Shown here: one piece after another, positions 5,044-34,055 of the stretch
Layout: the number at the start of each line of letters is the position of its first letter
Position numbering within the stretch: position 1 is the first letter of the stretch
Virus record (IMG/VR): IMGVR_UViG_3300025314_000001
Location: 32,001 to 96,000 of that record
From: a virus
Length of the DNA: 64,000 nucleotides
Strand: one strand, 5' to 3'
Made by a program: the position numbers and the translations under genes
Notes under the pieces: generated by a model
Seen by the model: only the letters and a program-made list of their open reading frames with translations
What the model was told of the DNA's origin: nothing
Databases searched by the model: none

Positions 5044-6950
5044 GGCACGGCGTTCCTGGCGCTGAAGTTCGTGGCGTAGCCCGAGGTCCGCTTGACCTTC
5101 GCGAACTTGCCGAGCTCGTCCAGGACGCCGCGGGCGAAGCGGCTCGGGTTCTGGTTCGTCGTGACGACGATCTCGACCTTCTGGATTGATGTGCCGCCGC
5201 CTCCGCCGTGCTTCGGCGTTGACTTCTTCGGGTCCTGCTCTCCCTCGCGTGTGCCTGTTCCCTCCTTGGGGTCTGGAGGTCTCCACCCTCGCGGCATAAC
5301 TTTTCCGCCCCACGTGCCAAACATATTGTACTCTTGCATCGGCGAGATCTCGATGCTCGGCGGGCGGATCGAGGCTAAGTTACCGAGCTCCCTGGTGGCG
5401 CTCCTTAGCCCCACAACGAAGTCATCGATGGCCAGCGGAGCTCCCGTGCCGATGTTCGTGATCAGCTTCTGAGTGGCGTCGTCCTCCATCTTCTTGGTAG
5501 CGGCCATCTTCCGCTGTTCCTCGTCGGCTTTTACCGATGCATCCGCCAAACCGGCAATGACGCCGGCCAGGAGAACCATCGACATTCCCATCGCGGCCGT
5601 GCCCGCCATGCCTCCCGCGGCGAGCCCGCCAAGAGCCGTTCCGCCGGCGCCGGCGCCTGCTGCAGTTGCCGCGGCGGCCGCGCCCCCCGCGCCCACGGTG
5701 GTCAGCATCCCAGGGTTCAGCAACGACATCATCTGCATGGTTCCCGCGCCCATCTTGAGGAGGTCGCCGCCGATGCTGAGACCGCCCATGCCGACCTTCA
5801 GGGCCAGGTAGGCCTCTGCCAGGTGGATCAGCTTGTCGATGGTCCCGGGATCCTTCAGCGCCTCCTTCATGGTTTCGCCAAAGGACTTCACGGTCGGCGC
5901 AATGTCCTCCCAGATCGCGCTCAGGCGATAGTAGGCGTTGGTCGCGAATTCGCGGAGCGATGGCCACCATTCTTGAATGGTCCGTTTTCCCCACTCAAAC
6001 GCGGAGGACAACCGTTCTCCGATGCTTTCCGCCCAGTACTTGACCTGGTCCTGGTTCCGCGTGAACCAGTCGTTGAACCAGCTCAGGACCTCTTTCCCCT
6101 TCTCGAACATCGGGGCCGTAGCGAGCCGAAGGAAGGTCTTACCGTTGTCGATCGCCGTACTGAACATCGCATCGAAACTCTTCTCGTAGAGCCCGATGAC
6201 CGGCGCGTACTTGTCGAGCTCAGTGCGGAGCTTCTCCAGCCGCTTATCCGGCGCCATCTTGTTGAACTCTTCGGCTTTGGCCCCCGTGAGCCCCATGATG
6301 CGCGTGCCGAATACGTTGTGGGCTCCGGATCGCCCAGAGAGCAACTGCCCCATCTCGCGCGCCACCATGTCCATCGGTAGCTGAGACACGGCCCCCGCGG
6401 CCATGACGTTCGACGCCATCTTGCGCCACTCGGCGGGGTTCATCCCGGTTTGAAACGCCGGGATGGCGCCGGTCACGAAGATGTTCCGGAGGTCCTGGAA
6501 CTCGCCCGGTAGCGCCGCGGCTTCCTTGCGCATCTCGGCAACCTGCTCGGCCGCCATCTGCATACCGCTCTGGACGTTCTTGGTGATGCCCTGGGCGGCG
6601 AAGACCCCCGCCAAGGCGATCTGCGCGCCCTCCGCCTCCTTGTTGAGGCCCATGACACCGTAGGTGATGCCGGCGATACCGGCGGCCGCCGCGCCCCCGA
6701 TGGCCATCTTGGCCATGCTGGCCCCGATGCCGACGACTCTGTCGGCGACGCGCTCTAGCGAATGGATCATCCCACCGGCGCCCGCCACGAACTGATTGGC
6801 TCCCTCGCGCAGCGACGCGAATCGATTCTTGATCCCGCCGAGGTTCCGGTCGAGATGAACGGCCTTCTGCGAAGCCGTCGCCATCGCGACGGCACCGAAG
6901 TCCCCCGTCTTACTGAGGTTCAGCTCTACCGTGTACTTGGTGTCAGCCAT
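5040..6950 (-). CDS. Tape measure protein
   Basis: 636 aa, Ala/Gly-rich helical with hydrophobic segments, in the tail module. Confidence 0.85.
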   Translation of the reverse strand: MADTKYTVELNLSKTGDFGAVAMATASQKAVHLDRNLGGIKNRFASLREGANQFVAGAGGMIHSLERVADRVVGIGASMAKMAIGGAAAAGIAGITYGVMGLNKEAEGAQIALAGVFAAQGITKNVQSGMQMAAEQVAEMRKEAAALPGEFQDLRNIFVTGAIPAFQTGMNPAEWRKMASNVMAAGAVSQLPMDMVAREMGQLLSGRSGAHNVFGTRIMGLTGAKAEEFNKMAPDKRLEKLRTELDKYAPVIGLYEKSFDAMFSTAIDNGKTFLRLATAPMFEKGKEVLSWFNDWFTRNQDQVKYWAESIGERLSSAFEWGKRTIQEWWPSLREFATNAYYRLSAIWEDIAPTVKSFGETMKEALKDPGTIDKLIHLAEAYLALKVGMGGLSIGGDLLKMGAGTMQMMSLLNPGMLTTVGAGGAAAAATAAGAGAGGTALGGLAAGGMAGTAAMGMSMVLLAGVIAGLADASVKADEEQRKMAATKKMEDDATQKLITNIGTGAPLAIDDFVVGLRSATRELGNLASIRPPSIEISPMQEYNMFGTWGGKVMPRGWRPPDPKEGTGTREGEQDPKKSTPKHGGGGGTSIQKVEIVVTTNQNPSRFARGVLDELGKFAKVKRTSGYATNFSARNAVP

Positions 6951-21730: not shown

Positions 21731-22972
21731 TCACTCTCGTTTTCCCCGCGGACCCGGAGGAGGGTAGAGCCTCGGGCGGGTCGCTCCCGCGCTCGACCGG
21801 AAACGGCTGCCCCTGCCGGCGGGCTTCTGCATGTCGTTCAGCCGCTTCAGAAGCGCTTCCGGGCTGCTCTGCCGCACGCCGGGGCGAATACCCTGTGGCC
21901 CTTGCGTAACGGCCCTGATGTAACGGAGGGCGCTTCGGTCCTGGATCTGGAAGACGTTGACAGGGTTGGTCGCCGCCAGCGCGTTGCGCGCTTCCGGTGT
22001 CATCCTTCCCCGTGGAGAGCGCGCCCCAATGAGTTCTCGGAGCTCAGCCTTGATCTCGCCGTAGTCGACCTGGAGCCCCGGGAGCCGGCGCCGCATCGCC
22101 TCGGGGATGACCATGCTCACGACGGCGCACCGGCAGCGGTTGTGCAGTGGTACTTGGGCGTCTTCGTCGAATGGCTTGTCAAACGGGACCATCTGGGCAT
22201 CGAGTCTCCAGCAGACCGCGCAGGTCCGACCGTCCAGGAACGCCGACCAGACCTTGAAGGTCATGGCGGTCCAGCCCCATGGGAGGCCGATGTCCGAGTC
22301 GGTGACCTCGTCGACCCGGGGTCGTGTTCGTCGGGCTGCCTCGTCCCGGAGCCGAGATATCTCGCCCCAGGCGCTTCGGTGCTCGTGGCCGTAGGCCTCG
22401 AAGGCCTGGTAGCTCGCGTGCCCCACGAGCTTGTCGGAGAGCGTTCCGCCGGCGCGCTTCAGCGCTTCCTCGAGTCGCCCCCCGTCGCGCCCCCAAAGCG
22501 AGGTCCCGAGCATCATTGCGCTCGCCCACTGCGACACCGCGGAGCCGGTGGCGATCGTTGCGGCGAGCTCGTCGACCTGTACCGCCTCCCAGACCTTGGG
22601 GGCCGCTGGGATCGTCCAGCCGAATCCCTTGGCCTTCCCGTAGGCCCCGACGATGGCCAGCTCGGACGCTACCTGACCCTGGGCGAGGTCGCGGGCCGCC
22701 ATCCGGCCCCGGGTCGTAGCCTCCCAGAACTGGTCTTCGAGCTGCCCGGTCTCCTGGTGGATGGCCTGGCGAAGGAACCGCTGGGACTCGTCGGCGTCTC
22801 GCGTCTTGGCCCGGCGCCGGTTCGCCTCGATGAGCCTCCCCGTCGCTGCCTGCGTCGCCTCGGTCATCATGCCGAGGCTGACCGCCTCAGCGGCGACGAC
22901 CCGTTGAATTGCGTCCCGGTGCTGAGCCAGCAGACGCTTTCGGGTTTCCTCGCTCAGTACCTTCGGCGGCAT
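21731..22972 (-). CDS. Head morphogenesis protein (SPP1 gp7 / Mu gpF-like)
   Basis: KVWSAFLDGRTCAVCWRLD...PLHNRCRC. Confidence 0.85.
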   Translation of the reverse strand: MPPKVLSEETRKRLLAQHRDAIQRVVAAEAVSLGMMTEATQAATGRLIEANRRRAKTRDADESQRFLRQAIHQETGQLEDQFWEATTRGRMAARDLAQGQVASELAIVGAYGKAKGFGWTIPAAPKVWEAVQVDELAATIATGSAVSQWASAMMLGTSLWGRDGGRLEEALKRAGGTLSDKLVGHASYQAFEAYGHEHRSAWGEISRLRDEAARRTRPRVDEVTDSDIGLPWGWTAMTFKVWSAFLDGRTCAVCWRLDAQMVPFDKPFDEDAQVPLHNRCRCAVVSMVIPEAMRRRLPGLQVDYGEIKAELRELIGARSPRGRMTPEARNALAATNPVNVFQIQDRSALRYIRAVTQGPQGIRPGVRQSSPEALLKRLNDMQKPAGRGSRFRSSAGATRPRLYPPPGPRGKRE

Positions 22973-24596
22973 TTCGCGGCTTTTCCTCTTCGAGCTCTTC
23001 GTTGCCCTCTTCCGTCCCCTCTTCTCCCGCTCGGAGCGCAGCCTCACGAAGCGCGTCGGTCATGGCCTGGTTCTCGTCGATCCCTTCGTCGATTTCCTTC
23101 TGAATCTGCACCCGCGTCTCGGGCGAGCAGTGCGGGACCAGGGACAGTGCCAGACTGGTCTTGTACTCTTTTTGGAATGTGCTCGACGGGATCGGAATCG
23201 TCTCCACCGTCAGTGCTTCATCGACCAATTCTCCGCGCTCGTTTAGCCGGAACTTCGAGCACCCGTACACGGCCCAGACGACTGCTTCTCTGCGCGCATC
23301 ACTGAGACAGCTGTAGACCTCTTTGGTGGCACGGCGAACGAACTTCCCGAGCGCACCCAAGACCTTCTCGGCTGACGACGAATCCTCTTTTTTGCTCTCC
23401 CCGGAGCGTCCGACCGTGGACGCCGTGTTGGGCAGCGATAGCGCCATCGCCGTTACGGTCAGGTAGATCTCTTCCTTGAGACTTTGGAGGCTCTTGTCGG
23501 CAATACTGAAGGCGTTCCCGCTCGGACTGGCATAGCCGATCTCATCCTTGTCCCCGATGGGTACGATGCCTTTCTCAAGTAAGGCCTGTAGGGTCTTTTC
23601 TCCGCGCTTCTCGTCCTCTCCGGTGGCACTCGGAAGTGCTTCTCCGACTCCTCGGACTTCCGAACCCTGTCGATACCACGGGATTTCGATCAGATTCCTG
23701 CCTATCGCACCGAAGAGATCGGAGCGCCGCTGGAAGTGCTCTTCGGCTAACGCTCCGATCTTATTGCCCGCCCAAAGCCCATCCGGTAGCTCAAGCACTA
23801 CGATCGGAATGCGATTAAACGAGGTCGTTCCCTCACCCACCTGGAACATGATCTCGTTGTCGCCGATGGGATCTCCGATCTTGTGGAGTTTTGACTCGAG
23901 CACCACGAACTTGGCAACCCCGCCCTCCATGTACCAGCACTTGAATCGGCACTTGTACTCGGTGCGCTCGTTCCAAGGGTCAAGGCGCTCGATGAGTTTG
24001 CGCATCGTGATGGCCCATAGCCACTTGCCATCATCTCCGATTCGCCAATCCAAGAGCTCTTGCTGGTCCAGTCCCTCGTCCCAGCAATACCCGCGCCCCG
24101 CCCCCGTCTTCTCTTCTTGGGCCCGGTTCGTGATCTCTGCGCCAACAGGGGGGAAGTCGAGATAGATGACGCCACGCTTGAAGAGCAGCGCCTGCGTCAC
24201 GATGCGGCGCATCACTTCTGCGAAAGGGCTTCCGGCTCGGTCCGCGTCGTTTGCGAAGTCTGGCCAGAATGCCTTGTCCGGTAGCTCCCCCGGAGTGTTC
24301 GGGTCTTTGGCGTCCCCCGCTGCGGTTACCGAAAGCTCTTCCTCGAAAAGCGCCGCGACCAAGTAGTCGACGACCTGGCCAAAGTAGTTGATGTACGAGA
24401 CGCGCTGAATCCGGTACTCGTAAGTCTGCTGCGTCTCGTTGATCGCTTTCTCGATGAATTTTCGCGCCTGCTCCTTGAGCTCATACCCGCCCTTGTAGAG
24501 CAAGCGGATGCGCTGCCAGATCTCCGGCTTGTTCTCCGGATTCTGCTGCGACAGCTTCTTGAAGCCGACGCTGGAAACAGACTCGGCGAAGGCCAT
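22887..24596 (-). CDS. Portal protein
   Basis: LLYKGG, YEYRIQRVSYINY, DADRAG, SGESKKED; position after TerL. Confidence 0.85.
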   Translation of the reverse strand: MAFAESVSSVGFKKLSQQNPENKPEIWQRIRLLYKGGYELKEQARKFIEKAINETQQTYEYRIQRVSYINYFGQVVDYLVAALFEEELSVTAAGDAKDPNTPGELPDKAFWPDFANDADRAGSPFAEVMRRIVTQALLFKRGVIYLDFPPVGAEITNRAQEEKTGAGRGYCWDEGLDQQELLDWRIGDDGKWLWAITMRKLIERLDPWNERTEYKCRFKCWYMEGGVAKFVVLESKLHKIGDPIGDNEIMFQVGEGTTSFNRIPIVVLELPDGLWAGNKIGALAEEHFQRRSDLFGAIGRNLIEIPWYRQGSEVRGVGEALPSATGEDEKRGEKTLQALLEKGIVPIGDKDEIGYASPSGNAFSIADKSLQSLKEEIYLTVTAMALSLPNTASTVGRSGESKKEDSSSAEKVLGALGKFVRRATKEVYSCLSDARREAVVWAVYGCSKFRLNERGELVDEALTVETIPIPSSTFQKEYKTSLALSLVPHCSPETRVQIQKEIDEGIDENQAMTDALREAALRAGEEGTEEGNEELEEEKPRNAAEGTERGNPKASAGSAPGRNSTGRRR

Positions 24597-25236: not shown

Positions 25237-26874
25237 TCAACTCATGGTCGGCAGAAACCTAGACCGCATCGCCCGGTCACGTTCCGCCTGTTGGGTGTTG
25301 CAGAGTTCGTCGTGCAGGGCCGCCAACGCATCCACGATATCGTCGTGGTCGTCTTTCTTGGGGTCCCCGGTGAACGACAGGACCTCGTTCAGGAAGACGT
25401 CGACCCATTCGCCGTAGAGCTCAGAGTCTTCTCCGGGCACGAATATGTGTCCCCGTTTCCCTTCGATGGGTTTTCCTTCGTCGTCGGTCGGAACGTTCCA
25501 AGTGGATGAGACCGGGGTTGCGCGGACAAGCTTGTCGGCCGTCGCGCGCAGGGCTCTCAGATAGGTTCGGTTGTTGGCGTCACAGAGGTGCTTTGCGATG
25601 AACTGCGCAGTGCCCTTCTCTCCTCCGCCACCGATGTACCATCGGATGATTCCCCGGCGTTCAGTCAGCTTCGCCTTCATCGTCAGGACGAACGACGTTG
25701 CCTCGACCTGCTTTCGCTCCATCCCGACAACGTAGATGTCACTTCCGAAGATGTAGCCGCGGAGCAGCACCGACCAGTCGGATTTGGTGCCCACCGTGTA
25801 GGCGAGGTCGGCGCCGTAGGCGATCGCGTACCCGCCTTCGCTCGGGAGCCTGGTGAAGCGCTGAACTCCATTAAAGAGCGCTCCCTCGACGGTCTTGACG
25901 AGCCAGTTACCGTCGCGGAGCTGAAGGCGCCTGACGCGGTCTGGAATCGACGCAACGCGCGCCCCGTACTTCGGGTCTGCCCTCGGGTTGTCCGCGAGCA
26001 TTGCCGGAATGAAGGTCCGCGAAAGTGACTTCGGTGTGCCGTCTGGGTTCAGGACCCGTTCTCGGCAGTAGACCTCGTTCCCTGCATCATCGAGGTAGAC
26101 GTGCCAGATTTCTCCGGGCTTGGCCGGAGGAAGCTGTCCAGCCTCGTCTTTGCGCTCTGTCAGTCCCTGCGCTTTGAAGTTCGGGTTGAGCCACGCCCCC
26201 CAGCGTCGGAAGACCCACTCGTGCCCGTTGCCGCCGGGGTTGGTGGTAGCCCGCACGTAGACCGGGAGTCCAGGACGACTTGATCGGTTTCGTCCAATGA
26301 GGAAGGTGTACTGCTGCTCGGTGAAGTGAGTGAGCTCATCGAAGATCAGAAGGTTGATTTCCCAACCGTCGTAGTTCTTCCAGTCGTCCTCGTTGTTGCA
26401 GTGGCTGAGACTGACCTCGGCACCGCTCGGAAACGTCCACCGATAGTGAGGGCTCTGGACCTTCGTCGCACCGGGGCACACCGCCGGGTATAAATCCCAG
26501 CTCTTGTGAATGAGGTCGTCGAGATCTTTGCTTTGGCGACGCAGGATGAGAGTCCGCATCCCCGGCAGGTGACCCCACTTGAGCGGGAACGCGACGGATG
26601 CGGCGGATTTGCCACCCCCAGCGGCCCCGCCATACAGTACCTCATCGCAATCGATGTCCCAGAAAAGCTCCTGAGGGCTTTTCCCGTTGTCGTAGGTGGG
26701 CCTGCCTTCGACGGGCGGATTCGGATTCCAGACTGCGGAGACGTCAAGCGGAACCGGGTCCGACTCTTCGTCCTCAACCGCCCGCAGTCTCGCCAGCCTC
26801 GCGCCGGCGATCGAGCTCCATGAGGTCTTCGAGGATCCCCTGGAGAATCTTTCTTGCAAGAACCCCTTTGACAT
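25237..26874 (-). CDS. terL: Terminase large subunit
   Basis: YGGAAGGGKS, LLIFDELTHF, ATTNPGGNGHEWV, GADLA, HDDIVDAL. Confidence 0.95.
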   Translation of the reverse strand: MSKGFLQERFSRGSSKTSWSSIAGARLARLRAVEDEESDPVPLDVSAVWNPNPPVEGRPTYDNGKSPQELFWDIDCDEVLYGGAAGGGKSAASVAFPLKWGHLPGMRTLILRRQSKDLDDLIHKSWDLYPAVCPGATKVQSPHYRWTFPSGAEVSLSHCNNEDDWKNYDGWEINLLIFDELTHFTEQQYTFLIGRNRSSRPGLPVYVRATTNPGGNGHEWVFRRWGAWLNPNFKAQGLTERKDEAGQLPPAKPGEIWHVYLDDAGNEVYCRERVLNPDGTPKSLSRTFIPAMLADNPRADPKYGARVASIPDRVRRLQLRDGNWLVKTVEGALFNGVQRFTRLPSEGGYAIAYGADLAYTVGTKSDWSVLLRGYIFGSDIYVVGMERKQVEATSFVLTMKAKLTERRGIIRWYIGGGGEKGTAQFIAKHLCDANNRTYLRALRATADKLVRATPVSSTWNVPTDDEGKPIEGKRGHIFVPGEDSELYGEWVDVFLNEVLSFTGDPKKDDHDDIVDALAALHDELCNTQQAERDRAMRSRFLPTMS

Positions 26875-27304
26875 GCTGGTTCAGGTGCTTTTCGACGATG
26901 TCGAGAAACTCCTCTTTCGCTTGCTTGACCTCGACATTGACCTTCTGCCCGTACTTGCCGGGCCTGGTCCGCTCAAGCAGGAAGGCCAGCGCCGTCCATT
27001 GCCCATTACGAATAAGATGTTCGTTGCCGTTGGCGTCGGTGGTGAATGCGTCTTGACCCGCTTTTTGGATGGCTTCGAGCGCCGTCTGCTCGAACATTGC
27101 CTGAGCCTGGTTGACCTTCGTGGCGAAGTCCGTGTAGGCGTTCGTTCTGCCTTCACTCAACGCCTTGTCTCCCCAGCGCTTCCACTCGTAGATAAGCTGG
27201 CGAGACAGCCCGCATCGCTCAGCTGCTGTGGATAGCGGCATCCCCTTGTTGGCGCAGACGCAAATCTTGTTCGTGGTCTCTGTGTCGGGTTTCTGTGCTG
27301 CCAT
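26774..27304 (-). CDS. terS: Terminase small subunit
   Basis: HTH (AAERCGLSRQLIYEW), WTALAFLLERTRPGKYG; directly upstream of TerL. Confidence 0.85.
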   Translation of the reverse strand: MAAQKPDTETTNKICVCANKGMPLSTAAERCGLSRQLIYEWKRWGDKALSEGRTNAYTDFATKVNQAQAMFEQTALEAIQKAGQDAFTTDANGNEHLIRNGQWTALAFLLERTRPGKYGQKVNVEVKQAKEEFLDIVEKHLNQHVKGVLARKILQGILEDLMELDRRREAGETAGG

Positions 27305-27307
27305 GGA

Positions 27308-28027
27308 CTATTCCGCGGCGGTCGACTCGGGCTCTCCGGCTTTGCGCATTCGGAAGATCTCACGGAGCTTGTCACCGGACTGGAAGCGGTTCGCCTCGAG
27401 TCCAAGCTCTTCCAGAAAGGCCGCCGCGTCTTCTGGCGACTTGAACACCGAGACGAAGTAGAAGTCCGTGGTGTTGTAACGAGCCCCAGCCTCGGCCGTC
27501 TTCGCAACAACCTCACGCGCTGCCCGTAGCCGGTCGGCCATTTCCTCAAGCTTTTGTGCCTCGGCGTTGTCGACCTGGTCTCCGAGCATCCGCATGACGT
27601 CGGCATCGTCGAATCCGGTAGCCTCCAGGTCGAGCCCCGGCAGCATCTCGTTGAGCTTCTCTGGATCCCAATCGCCCTGAGCGGACCAGTTGTTCAGGAG
27701 CAGGTTCGCTTCCTTCTCCTGCTTTTCGTCAAGGTCGACTACCGCAACAGTCAGCAGATAGTCTGGCTTCGTCTCCATCTGGTCTAGAATCGAGAGCCGC
27801 TGGTGCCCGCCAACGAGGTTCCCTGTGCGCTTGTTCCACTGCACGGGCCCCAATAGTTTCAGCTTCTTGATCCCGTTGCGAAGCTTCTTTCGTGCCGCAT
27901 CGCTGATGCGGCGCGGGTTGTAAGGCGCATTCTTGAGCTCACTCCGTCGCCTTACCTCACAGACGAATCCTTCGAATTGCGTCAGCGTGAGCTCTTCGAG
28001 TGAACTAGCCGAGTCCATAGAACTCAC
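27308..28027 (-). CDS. ParB/Srx N-terminal domain protein
   Basis: APYNPRRIS, WNKRTGNLVGGHQR, GDWD. Confidence 0.85.
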   Translation of the reverse strand: MSSMDSASSLEELTLTQFEGFVCEVRRRSELKNAPYNPRRISDAARKKLRNGIKKLKLLGPVQWNKRTGNLVGGHQRLSILDQMETKPDYLLTVAVVDLDEKQEKEANLLLNNWSAQGDWDPEKLNEMLPGLDLEATGFDDADVMRMLGDQVDNAEAQKLEEMADRLRAAREVVAKTAEAGARYNTTDFYFVSVFKSPEDAAAFLEELGLEANRFQSGDKLREIFRMRKAGEPESTAAE

Positions 28028-28676
28028 GTCGCGCCGGGACTACCCCGACGTAGGGAAAGACCTGGGCAATCCGATCGAAGTCATCAGGGTAGTTGTCAAA
28101 GAGCCACAGCAATCGAGGGATCGACAGATCAATCCCGGTCGTTTGGGTGCCCTTCTGAGCGTCTGGCAGCGGTATGTTCCGAGCCTTCAAGTACGCCAGC
28201 ACGTCGAACTTGTTCCACCCGACAATCGGGCAAATCGTCTTCGTTCTCTGCGCCTTCCGCGCGTTGGATGCGCGGAACATGTAGTCGGCTCGACGCTGCC
28301 CGTTGGCTATCAGCCGAATTCCCGTGTCTTGCGCAGCCACCTCGTAGATATCCTGAATGGAGAGCTTCTCGAGGTCGCTGTATTGGTCGCGCACAGGGCA
28401 GAAGATCTCGTTCTGTAGCGACACCAAGACTTGCGGGTGAATGTACTCCCGGACCGTTACCCCCCAGCGCTCCTTCGCGTAATCCATGAGCGGCTGACAG
28501 CACCGCAATCCAGGCAGGAACGACATGAAGAAAGCCTCCATCCGCTTGAAGGCTCTCGAACAGAGGTCGATGACAGCGAGACTGTCTTTTCCGCCTGAGT
28601 AGGCGACCAGAACAGCCTCGCTCTCATCCGCGGCTTCGCGCAGGATCCTTTCGGTCTCCTGCCATGGCCGCTCCAT
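28005..28676 (-). CDS. PAPS-reductase-like PP-loop ATPase
   Basis: VAYSGGKDS, GQRRADYMFR, PIVGWNKFDVLAY; lacks the C-terminal ECGxH motif. Confidence 0.85.
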   Translation of the reverse strand: MERPWQETERILREAADESEAVLVAYSGGKDSLAVIDLCSRAFKRMEAFFMSFLPGLRCCQPLMDYAKERWGVTVREYIHPQVLVSLQNEIFCPVRDQYSDLEKLSIQDIYEVAAQDTGIRLIANGQRRADYMFRASNARKAQRTKTICPIVGWNKFDVLAYLKARNIPLPDAQKGTQTTGIDLSIPRLLWLFDNYPDDFDRIAQVFPYVGVVPARREFYGLG

Positions 28677-28690
28677 CGCTTTCGGCAAGT

Positions 28691-28804
28691 TCAGCCTGCG
28701 GAACTGCCCACGCCGGGCGTAAAGCGGATCGCTCCGCCGCCAGATGCCTTACTGAACCTCACGGGCGCCTTTCGCACGGGAGCCTTCTTTTTTCGAGCTG
28801 CCAT
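28691..28804 (-). CDS. 37-aa basic peptide B ending GSSAG
   Basis: MAARKKKAPVRKAPVRFSKASGGGAIRFTPGVGSSAG; RBS GGAGG; paralog of peptide A. Confidence 0.85.
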   Translation of the reverse strand: MAARKKKAPVRKAPVRFSKASGGGAIRFTPGVGSSAG

Positions 28805-28863
28805 TGTTCAACCTCCGGAGGGTTGTTGTTGTCGAACGCCGGACGACCCGGCGAGTCGTCTGT

Positions 28864-29025
28864 TCACCCAGCAGAACTACCAGCGCCGGGCGTAAAGCGG
28901 ATCGCTCCGCCGCCGGCTGCTTTACTGAAACGCGCCGGGGACTTCCTACTCTCCCGACGCAATTTGGACTTCACGTCGTAGGGTCCACCCTTGCGGGTGT
29001 AGCTGGGTAGCTTTGCTGATGCCAT
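28864..29025 (-). CDS. 53-aa basic peptide A ending GSSAG
   Basis: MASAKLPSYTRKGGPYDVKSKLRRESRKSPARFSKAAGGGAIRFTPGAGSSAG; RBS GAGGT. Confidence 0.85.
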   Translation of the reverse strand: MASAKLPSYTRKGGPYDVKSKLRRESRKSPARFSKAAGGGAIRFTPGAGSSAG

Positions 29026-29110
29026 TTGTCACCTCTCAAAGTTCGGTGTTGACCTGGTGTCGTGATGTCCCCGCGCGCGCGTAGGCGTCGGTCGCTGATC
29101 GGGTGTAAGG

Positions 29111-29203
29111 CTACTTCCCCTTACCTTTTCCCTTGCCCTTGCCGCCCTTGGGCATCTTCGGACCGCCGTTTCCCTTACCTTTGCCTTTTCCGCCGCATCC
29201 CAT
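29111..29203 (-). CDS. 30-aa Gly/Lys-rich peptide
   Basis: MGCGGKGKGKGNGGPKMPKGGKGKGKGKGK; RBS AGGAG; varied Gly and Lys codons. Confidence 0.7.
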   Translation of the reverse strand: MGCGGKGKGKGNGGPKMPKGGKGKGKGKGK

Positions 29204-29256: not shown

Positions 29257-29332
29257 AGGCCCGGAGGCGGGAGTCGAACCGCGCTGCTTCCGGGGTATGA
29301 ACCTCAGTGCCCTTCCGTTGGGCCACTCCGCA
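29257..29332 (-). tRNA. Degenerate tRNA-Met(CAT)-like element
   Basis: Acceptor TGCGGAG/CTCCGGG, D stem GCCC/GGGC, loop TTCATAC, T loop TTCGACT; bulged anticodon and T stems; no CCA. Confidence 0.5.
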
Positions 29333-33566: not shown

Positions 33567-33674
33567 GCCGCTACCCGTCGCACGCCCTCTGTAGCGAGCT
33601 AGCAGGGGCGGCCCCGGGCGGCTCGGTTGCCGACAAATTCTCGACAAGGTCGATCTTCGCCTGGAGGTACTCCA

Positions 33675-34055
33675 ATGAAAGCCCTTTCTGTGAAACAGCC
33701 ATGGGCCAGCCTGATTGCGGCTGGCGTCAAAACTCTAGAGGTTCGGTCACGCCGGACCCCCCATCGGGGGCCCCTGGTCATCTGTTCAAGTCGGGCGGAC
33801 GCTCACAGTGACGAGGCTCTGGCCGCGTCAAAAAGGCTACCCGGGAACCCTTACCCTAGCGGGGTGACGATCTGTCTGGTCGACCTAGTCGACTGTCGCG
33901 AGGGCAAGCGCACGGACCGCCGAGCGGCACTCTGCGACCCGACGGGGGATTTCGTTTGGGTACTGGCCAACCGGAGGCCGTGCCCGGCCGTTCCTGTCAG
34001 CGGCAAGCTTGGGGTTTTCGAGCTACCCGACGAAATTGCGCGCCGGCTGGCCTGA
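33675..34055 (+). CDS. ASCH domain protein
   Basis: MKALSVKQPWASLIAAGVKTLEVRS...RGPLVI...GKLGVF; RBS GGAGG. Confidence 0.9.
   Translation: MKALSVKQPWASLIAAGVKTLEVRSRRTPHRGPLVICSSRADAHSDEALAASKRLPGNPYPSGVTICLVDLVDCREGKRTDRRAALCDPTGDFVWVLANRRPCPAVPVSGKLGVFELPDEIARRLA

Follow-up and report, generated by a model that had tools for sequence, protein, structure and literature searches.

Two small peptide genes near the head of a phage packaging operon

The DNA analysed here, referred to as the window, is a 64,000-nucleotide stretch (bases 32001-96000) of the 106,685-bp IMG/VR virus record IMGVR_UViG_3300025314_000001, a ~107-kb soil phage genome that has direct terminal repeats and is judged complete. 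We focused on a minus-strand operon in which short, strongly basic peptides precede a PP-loop enzyme, a ParB-like protein and the terminase genes. The operon is headed by a 30-amino-acid (aa) Gly-Lys open reading frame (ORF; 29111-29203) whose last residue is K, not G, followed by basic peptide B (53 aa; 28864-29025), its paralogue basic peptide A (37 aa; 28691-28804), a PP-loop ATP pyrophosphatase of the PAPS_reduct family (227 aa; 28005-28688), a ParB-like protein (27308-28027; PHROG 9353/620), the small terminase subunit TerS (26774-27304; PHROG 4102 at 2.7e-15, with a weak Sf6_terminase/helix-turn-helix (HTH) Pfam match) and the large terminase subunit TerL (25237-26874; PHROG 979 at 9.4e-57; Pfam Terminase_6N/3). 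The coordinates and the Pfam and PHROG matches agree with the order of PP-loop, ParB-like, TerS and TerL genes given in a preliminary description of this DNA. The stop codon of peptide A falls 2 nt ahead of the PP-loop gene start, and the PP-loop and ParB-like genes overlap by 23 nt; the peptides appear to be made in translational coupling with the enzyme and the ParB-like protein. Five public runs contain the window stretch, all of them soil metagenome DNA, and no RNA run is listed among the five.

Both peptide ORFs lie exactly where the preliminary description had placed them, each with a Shine-Dalgarno-like ribosome-binding site (GAGAGGTG and GGAGG). Their last 22 residues are, as had been claimed, identical at 20 of 22 positions and end in GSSAG-stop, and the codons of this block differ synonymously at six positions and non-synonymously at two (A/S and A/V). 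By the Nei-Gojobori method the two blocks are separated by 8.0 synonymous and 3.0 non-synonymous steps (non-synonymous rate, dN, 0.065; synonymous rate, dS, 0.66); four of the five other reading frames reverse this pattern, and in one antisense frame, too, synonymous change outnumbers non-synonymous. When back-translated degenerately, the core block matched only these two sites in the window (0 expected, from 100 shuffles), and GSSAG-type tails occur twice in the whole 107-kb genome, both times at these ORFs. Comparison of peptide A with its orthologue in the closest relative, the IMG/VR contig L001 (3472-3585), gave a dN of 0.085 and a saturated dS of ~1.9, and dN/dS of the peptides in the window lineage is about 0.04-0.1. 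We also observed dN below dS in independent lineages (0.26/0.76 for L011/L013), with the L064/L065 peptide pair differing by nine synonymous and no non-synonymous changes. These ratios support the claim that the peptides are real genes under purifying selection, both in the window lineage and in independent ones. The Gly-Lys ORF at the head of the operon differs from its L001 counterpart by six synonymous and no non-synonymous changes plus a two-codon indel. This ORF may be a diverged member of the family, or else an acceptor rich in Lys; the Gly-tailed peptides of L064, L065 and L069 are themselves rich in Gly and Lys.

L001, whose PP-loop enzyme is 92% identical to that of the window, retains the Gly-Lys ORF and the 37-aa peptide and lacks the 53-aa copy. 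The soil-run contigs contain a minor variant (depth ~8 vs ~150) without the 53-aa gene, in which 292 bases of window 28827-29120, including that gene, are replaced by 203 others, as in L001. Because it is absent from both, the 53-aa gene is a lineage-specific extra copy. Extra peptide copies are also present in L007, L062, L078, L010 and L012, several loci carrying two or three. A read-through fusion of peptide and enzyme was considered and rejected, being in frame in L001 and out of frame in the window. L001 has in addition a 458-aa ORF (5096-6472) between its ParB-like gene and terS.

A 30-nt core on the minus strand (28713-28741 and 28886-28914) is identical between the two peptide genes, with many synonymous differences in the flanking codons, and the repeat could on that account be read as a non-coding signal acting at the DNA or RNA level (a regulatory repeat, a ParB-binding site or a pac site, for instance). 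However, the differences between the copies fall at third codon positions in this frame, the L001 orthologue alters the core at synonymous sites, distant loci keep the protein tail with no DNA similarity, and the core contains no palindrome. A signal of this kind is essentially excluded as the sole explanation, and the identical core looks like the outcome of recent gene conversion between the paralogues.

Gly-tailed peptides recur beside the PP-loop enzyme

We gathered loci with PP-loop homologues from viral, genomic and metagenomic collections. Forty-two non-redundant loci have a homologue of the PP-loop gene (the family loci), and 39 loci with other PAPS-reductase-like genes served as controls. 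A ParB-like homologue lies just downstream of the enzyme at every locus with a clear homologue (tblastn E below 1e-20; 26-92% identity) whose contig is long enough, and none of the more remote PAPS-reductase-like loci has one beside it. In most family loci the slot directly upstream of the PP-loop gene holds a small, strongly basic ORF with a Gly-rich end (GGTGG, GGSGG, GGMGG, GGKGG, GGGGGGG, GGGGGAG and GSSAG, for example), and in most of them the peptide's stop codon falls between -22 and +75 nt relative to the PP-loop start. With a strict definition (net charge +4 or higher, G as last residue and three or more G among the last six), 27 of 109 slot ORFs qualified, in 26 of 46 family loci, against 11 of 3133 ORFs elsewhere in the same loci, ~5 of which are extra copies inside the module, located between the enzyme and ParB genes or just past the ParB gene. 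A looser rule identified such an ORF at 25 of the 42 non-redundant family loci and at 0 of the 39 control loci (p = 5e-10). Depending on the strictness of the tail definition, 25-33 of the 42 family loci carry a basic, Gly-rich-tailed upstream ORF. A Gly-Gly end is present in 21 loci. Four further loci have an ORF of the same kind with one residue beyond the Gly run (GGGGA, TGAGQ, GAGSGR and NANAGS), and at the remainder the ORF is basic but has no Gly tail, or no candidate stands out. A basic upstream ORF lacking the Gly tail is present at roughly a fifth to a third of the family loci, so the tail is frequent but not obligatory.

The preliminary description had assigned the peptides to the PP-loop/ParB pair and had proposed collecting homologues and scanning upstream of them. 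That scan found the peptides beside homologues as distant as 26-46% identity, in most loci and at no control, and the assignment stands (25/42 vs 0/39). The reciprocal search starting from the peptide was weak, a 15-peptide profile being too variable; a profile built from a closer peptide set recovered one true new locus (L093, with PP-loop and ParB genes downstream) and one spurious match. A scan for seven Gly codons followed by a stop returned mainly Gly-rich structural proteins continuing with Trp, its sole small and strongly basic match being the known L004 contig. The module is conserved from soil phages to phages of gut Clostridia, Eggerthellaceae and Bacteroides. We consider it almost certain that the peptide, the PP-loop enzyme and the ParB-like protein work together, and probable that the enzyme has the peptide as its direct substrate or partner. 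In some relatives, one or two additional genes separate the PP-loop gene from the ParB-like gene (L005:3563-4219 and L015:3596-4605); the Cys/His-rich ones resemble HNH-type proteins, and the peptide in these loci stays beside the PP-loop gene.

A small peptide adjoining an adenylating enzyme, present in several copies per locus as is typical of clusters for ribosomally synthesized and post-translationally modified peptides (RiPPs), might alternatively be the precursor of a diffusible product, either a microcin C-type peptidyl-nucleotide or another RiPP, serving host takeover or competition. Against this, the loci share no recurring gene for an exporter, a protease or immunity, the partner that is always present is a ParB-like DNA protein, and the peptides are long, highly basic and variable except in the tail. 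We find a diffusible product scarcely probable.

The free C-terminus is the conserved feature of the peptides

Counting positions from the stop codon across 38 peptides revealed a defined register. G occupies position -1 in 33 peptides, -2 in 30, -4 in 27 and -5 in 29, whereas -3 is variable. Further from the stop, 19 peptides have S or T at -7, and R or K predominates from -8 to -10; all three stop codons are in use. The family consensus is R-R-x-S-x-G-G-x-G-G-COOH, with GGxGG-stop found in 18 peptides, and the corresponding window tail is G[AV]GSSAG-COOH. On this register, the tail is fixed to the free C-terminus and does not reflect composition bias. The earlier proposal that selection acts on the peptide end is borne out, the extreme C-terminus being the conserved feature. 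Alignment revealed a second motif nearer the N-terminus, [RK][IVF]xxx[ST]G, which at other loci takes the form RINATTGV, RFRPTAGGG or VIARxTGAG. Both window peptides carry RFSKA[SA]GGG (RFSKASGGG in peptide A) and G[AV]GSSAG-stop (GVGSSAG-stop in peptide A), with fewer glycines than the GGxGG consensus. Because the second motif and the stop-anchored tail are both common to the family, the 22-residue block of the window peptides is, at the sequence level, the family core.

Across loci the peptides range from 20 to 120 aa and are basic, low in complexity and variable except for the tail. No family in Pfam, PHROG, NCBIfam or PADLOC matches any of them; a profile search of 5.8 billion proteins returned 18 peptide relatives, none of them named, and the ESM Atlas held no usable look-alike of the 53-aa peptide. 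Literature searches turned up no report connecting a peptide with phage PAPS-reductase/ParB pairs. The peptides belong to a widespread family, so far without a name, of small and strongly basic phage proteins that are predicted to be disordered.

Such proteins could also act as non-covalent partners, whether as protamine-like or ParB/TerS-associated DNA-binding cofactors or as regulators of the enzyme, with the Gly tail merely flexible or low in complexity and the enzyme acting alone on DNA or a nucleotide. In favour of this are the very basic character and predicted disorder of the peptides, the wider occurrence of a basic upstream ORF than of a Gly tail (33 of 42 loci have such an ORF with a net charge of at least +10), the absence of any Gly tail from several loci, and the presence in the operon of the Gly-Lys ORF ending in K. 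Yet basic ORFs alone are common by chance, occurring at 9 of the 39 control loci, whereas the Gly tail is found only beside this PP-loop enzyme family, and its position-specific, stop-locked register with the variable -3 position is not what composition bias would give. We regard a purely non-covalent role as rather unlikely, though deserving of real weight.

The PP-loop enzyme has a predicted adenylating site and no reductase motif

The enzyme is a member of the PAPS_reduct fold (PF01507, 45 bits against a 22.5-bit cut-off, 1.4e-11). Its PP-loop motif, YSGGKDS, is conserved, with S31, G33, K34, D35 and S36 invariant or nearly so in sets of 41 and 42 sequences; the invariant residues comprise the PP-loop, D41, G130, D135, R139, P154, W158 and D203, and the pocket varies within the family at positions 185 (G or F) and 97 (C or R). 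No ECG or ECGLH motif occurs in the 227-aa enzyme, and no conserved C-terminal Cys was found among 41 homologues. By these motifs the enzyme shares the PAPS_reduct fold and lacks the catalytic ECGLH of CysH (PAPS/APS reductase), the C-terminal third being a family-specific helical region in place of the reductase ECGLH segment. Foldseek searches with an AlphaFold2 model (pLDDT 88.8) returned a generic PP-loop fold, with TtuA, LarE, TilS, APS reductase, CysD and GMP synthetase all at TM scores of ~0.5 (0.56-0.57 for the APS reductases 4bwv and 2goy). The top match was TtuA in complex with TtuB, nearly tied with LarE, TilS and APS reductase.

We then compared the enzyme with PP-loop proteins of defence and modification systems. 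PADLOC matches cover the PP-loop only, as for BrxP (4e-9, residues 18-47) and DndC (E ~0.007), and the three-Cys [4Fe-4S] site and Cys dyad that, with DndA/DndD/DndE-type partners, characterize DndC, SspD and BrxP are lacking, as is a cysteine desulfurase gene in the genome. The PADLOC match to QueC (1.3e-4) is confined to residues 22-57, the profile match to Cap9 is marginal (E 0.002), and the only Pfam match is PF01507, not PF06508; partners in the QueC-type systems have an N-terminal MG(G/T)S tail, whereas the conserved tail of the peptides is C-terminal. Among the enzyme homologues we found no longer, fused form, which is weak evidence. A co-fold of the enzyme with the 37-aa peptide and ATP, run with no controls, scored 0.00 and speaks neither for nor against binding.

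Within the family only C43 is common, C63 and C97 being absent from the Clostridia-type group, and an Fe-S cluster in the enzyme is unlikely for this reason. The Clostridia-type group has the clearest GGxGG peptides, yet lacks C63 and C97. The enzyme combines an intact adenylating site with no sulfur or redox features. These observations bear on the idea that the peptide is a TtuB-like sulfur carrier whose Gly thiocarboxylate would yield a thio-base or a phosphorothioate through the PP-loop enzyme. The nearly tied top match to TtuA with its GG-tailed TtuB is consistent with such a carrier, as is the place of DndC, SspD and BrxP among PP-loop enzymes of the same broad family, the PADLOC match to BrxP being limited to the PP-loop. 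However, the enzyme has no conserved Cys triad or dyad, the complete phage genome encodes no cysteine desulfurase and no ThiF/E1-like protein, and a beta-grasp fold would need longer and more ordered peptides than these. The sulfur-carrier idea is weakened because the Cys triad, desulfurase and ThiF/E1 are all missing, and we consider it very improbable. The preliminary description had read the peptides as substrates or carriers activated at the C-terminal Gly; the analysis supports this in part, in that the peptides belong with the PP-loop/ParB pair, and the sulfur-donor variant has lost ground.

The ParB-like partner resembles CTP-binding DNA clamps

In the ParB-like protein, N37-P38-R39 and G74-H75-Q76-R77, corresponding to the box I NPR and box II GxxR motifs, are invariant. 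Its closest solved structures are the N-domains of ParB-CDP (6sdk), ParB-CTPgS (7bnr), Noc and KorB rather than sulfiredoxin or serine kinases, and by motif and predicted fold it can be placed in the ParB/Srx superfamily as a putative CTP-binding ParB N-domain. The structure matches are limited to the N-domain; the C-terminal 90 residues match nothing, with pLDDT below 50 at 150-188. The same domain type is fused to phage DNA methyltransferases (PHROG 498, 1.3e-25; PADLOC MTase_II, 1.3e-16), which suggests a role for the ParB-like protein in recruiting a modifying enzyme to DNA.

The module opens the late/packaging operon in the window, in Bacteroides phage BS-TP2 and in Riemerella phage RAP44, and this gene order suggests that the PP-loop/ParB/peptide process may be coupled to packaging. 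The position before terS could instead reflect late-operon control with no DNA chemistry involved, the pair acting as a late-gene activator like IbrA/IbrB of E. coli and the peptides being accessory. IbrA and IbrB, PAPS-reductase-like and ParB-like proteins, reportedly switch on the eib genes of E. coli prophages, in work attributed to Sandt et al. (2002). Heading of the late operon in all three phages fits this alternative, as does the resemblance of the ParB-like protein to CTP-switch DNA clamps that include the regulator KorB. An intact ATP-pyrophosphatase site, however, is conserved across the family, implying catalysis; the domain searches detected neither an HTH nor a sigma-like domain in its parts, the weak Sf6_terminase/HTH match belonging to TerS; and at many Clostridia-type loci what comes after the module is not the terminase but an ASCH gene in convergent orientation. 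A late-gene activator is, in our view, improbable.

An ASCH gene is statistically linked to the module

The window also encodes an ASCH-domain protein (33627-34055, plus; PF04266, 6.9e-7), a possible accessory part of the system. It has the ASCH fold and carries the octapeptide GVKTLEVR, which conforms to GxKxx[TE]xR and is of the GxKxxExR type, its activity being predicted only. Relatives of this protein are encoded in the 3-kb flanks at 17 of 42 family loci, compared with 1 of 39 controls (p = 2.7e-5), and at nine family loci the ASCH gene is within 100 nt of the end of the ParB gene. In BS-TP2 an ASCH gene stands immediately upstream of the peptide gene. In the Clostridia-type loci L010-L018, L040-L042 and L086 it starts no part of the module's operon but is encoded on the opposite strand and convergent, at a distance of ~60-400 nt past the ParB-like gene. 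N4-acylcytosines are hydrolysed by ASCH proteins, among them E. coli YqfB (PMC6972931), both ASCH octapeptide types strip N4-acetylcytidine (ac4C) from tRNA (bioRxiv 10.64898/2026.02.27.708502), and ASCH proteins are counted among the PUA-like readers of modified bases (PMC12707154).

Proposed activation of the peptide C-terminus

Our preferred reading, which we hold tentatively and at somewhat less than an even chance, is that the enzyme activates the C-terminal Gly of the peptide and ligates the peptide to an amine. In this scheme the PP-loop enzyme would adenylate the carboxylate of the terminal glycine with ATP. Flexibility of the Gly tail would let this carboxylate reach the nucleotide site, much as ubiquitin-like tails do, and the enzyme would next transfer the peptide to an amine. 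The ParB-like partner would site the reaction on phage DNA, at the onset of late expression or at packaging. DNA is the suggested target because the ParB-like domain is of the type fused to phage DNA methyltransferases. The favoured acceptor would be an exocyclic base amine; the N-acyl base so formed could then be recognised or erased by the co-travelling ASCH amidohydrolase. Alternatively, the peptide would be passed to a DNA-bound protein. In its fullest form, this proposal would have phages writing ribosomally made basic peptides onto their own DNA through an amide between Gly and a base amine, for example N4 of cytosine, with the ParB clamp guiding the reaction at packaging and ASCH serving as eraser or reader. 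That version is a long shot; if true, the phage DNA would carry a peptide hypermodification, of a type without a published description, that neutralises its charge and protects it from restriction.

Several points weigh against C-terminal activation of the peptide and its extension to DNA. Known PF01507 members adenylate sulfate or flavin mononucleotide (FMN), or bind PAPS, and we know of none that acts on a peptide. Depending on the rule, the basic upstream ORF at 9-17 of the 42 family loci does not end in Gly; the ends of these ORFs include GA, GQ, GR and GS, and some have no Gly tail of any kind. The remote homologues in the cultured phages Lactobacillus LR1 and Bifidobacterium BigBern1 have no such peptide beside them. 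The link between ASCH and the module is statistical, and in the window the ASCH gene lies 4.4 kb from the module on the other strand.

Relation to known systems

Pairs of the IbrA/IbrB and YbdN/YbdM type, BS-TP2 gp54/gp55 and RAP44 gp33/gp32 comprise the same two families in the same order, directly upstream of terS/terL. BS-TP2 further encodes a 53-aa basic ORF, gp53, ending in GANGSNG, and this Bacteroides phage provides a cultured system with the module (gp52-gp55). In such phages the PAPS reductase/ParB-like pair is annotated by name only and the small Gly-tailed ORF is unannotated or labelled hypothetical, so that an enzyme-ParB pair ahead of terminase is a familiar but unexplained annotation. 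Phage PAPS reductase pairs are usually read as sulfur-metabolism auxiliary genes (PMC12323421) and are routinely counted as such. This label is probably wrong for many viromes, because members of this family do without the reductase catalytic motif and are tied to a ParB-like protein and to a peptide that annotations miss. The module likely matters for phage fitness, given its wide conservation and its position at the head of the packaging genes.

The closest functional parallels are found in host defence. The QueC-family enzymes Cap9, which acts on CdnD in type IV CBASS deazaguanylation, and QatC, which acts on QatB in QatABCD defence, act on the disordered, Gly-terminated tail of a partner encoded next door, and the terminal Gly of that partner is essential (bioRxiv 10.1101/2025.04.06.647259; PMC13279940). 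These enzymes belong to PF06508, whereas the window enzyme belongs to PF01507 and comes from a phage. The polarity is also reversed: in Cap9 and QatC the tail is N-terminal and supplies the amine, the adenylated carboxylate belonging to the deazaguanine, while the window peptides have a C-terminal tail and would supply the carboxylate.

TtuA-TtuB, like Ncs6-Urm1, carries out tRNA 2-thiolation with a PP-loop enzyme and a small partner whose Gly-Gly end enters the active site, and it provides the top structural match. TtuA, however, holds a [4Fe-4S] cluster through three Cys, and TtuB has a beta-grasp fold and undergoes E1-like activation; the window module has none of these. Ubiquitin-like modifiers and their E1 enzymes (ubiquitin with its LRLRGG end, ThiS, MoaD, Bil/Bub and Cap2-cGAS) offer an analogy in their basic-then-GG end and in the acyl-adenylate formed before transfer to an amine or sulfur. 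Here the putative activator is a PP-loop enzyme rather than a ThiF/E1 Rossmann fold, the modifier would be fold-less, and no E2, E3 or protease genes accompany it. ParB-fused phage DNA methyltransferases pair the same kind of ParB N-domain with a modifying enzyme near packaging genes, the window partner being a separate PP-loop enzyme and not a fused S-adenosylmethionine-dependent methyltransferase. Should the Gly tail prove to be the substrate, a PP-loop enzyme would here perform ubiquitin-like C-terminal activation of a peptide without a fold, a counterpart to the recently discovered Cap9 and QatC reactions that might constitute a new class of DNA or protein modification.

Neighbouring features

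Directly upstream of the Gly-Lys ORF, window 29262-29330 (minus) gave a tRNA-like Rfam match (RF00005) of 28.6 bits, under the 29-bit gathering score; a tRNA at this site was not confirmed, ARAGORN calling none there. Downstream of TerL, the window encodes a 569-aa ORF (22887-24596) without a Pfam match and also a MuF-like gene.

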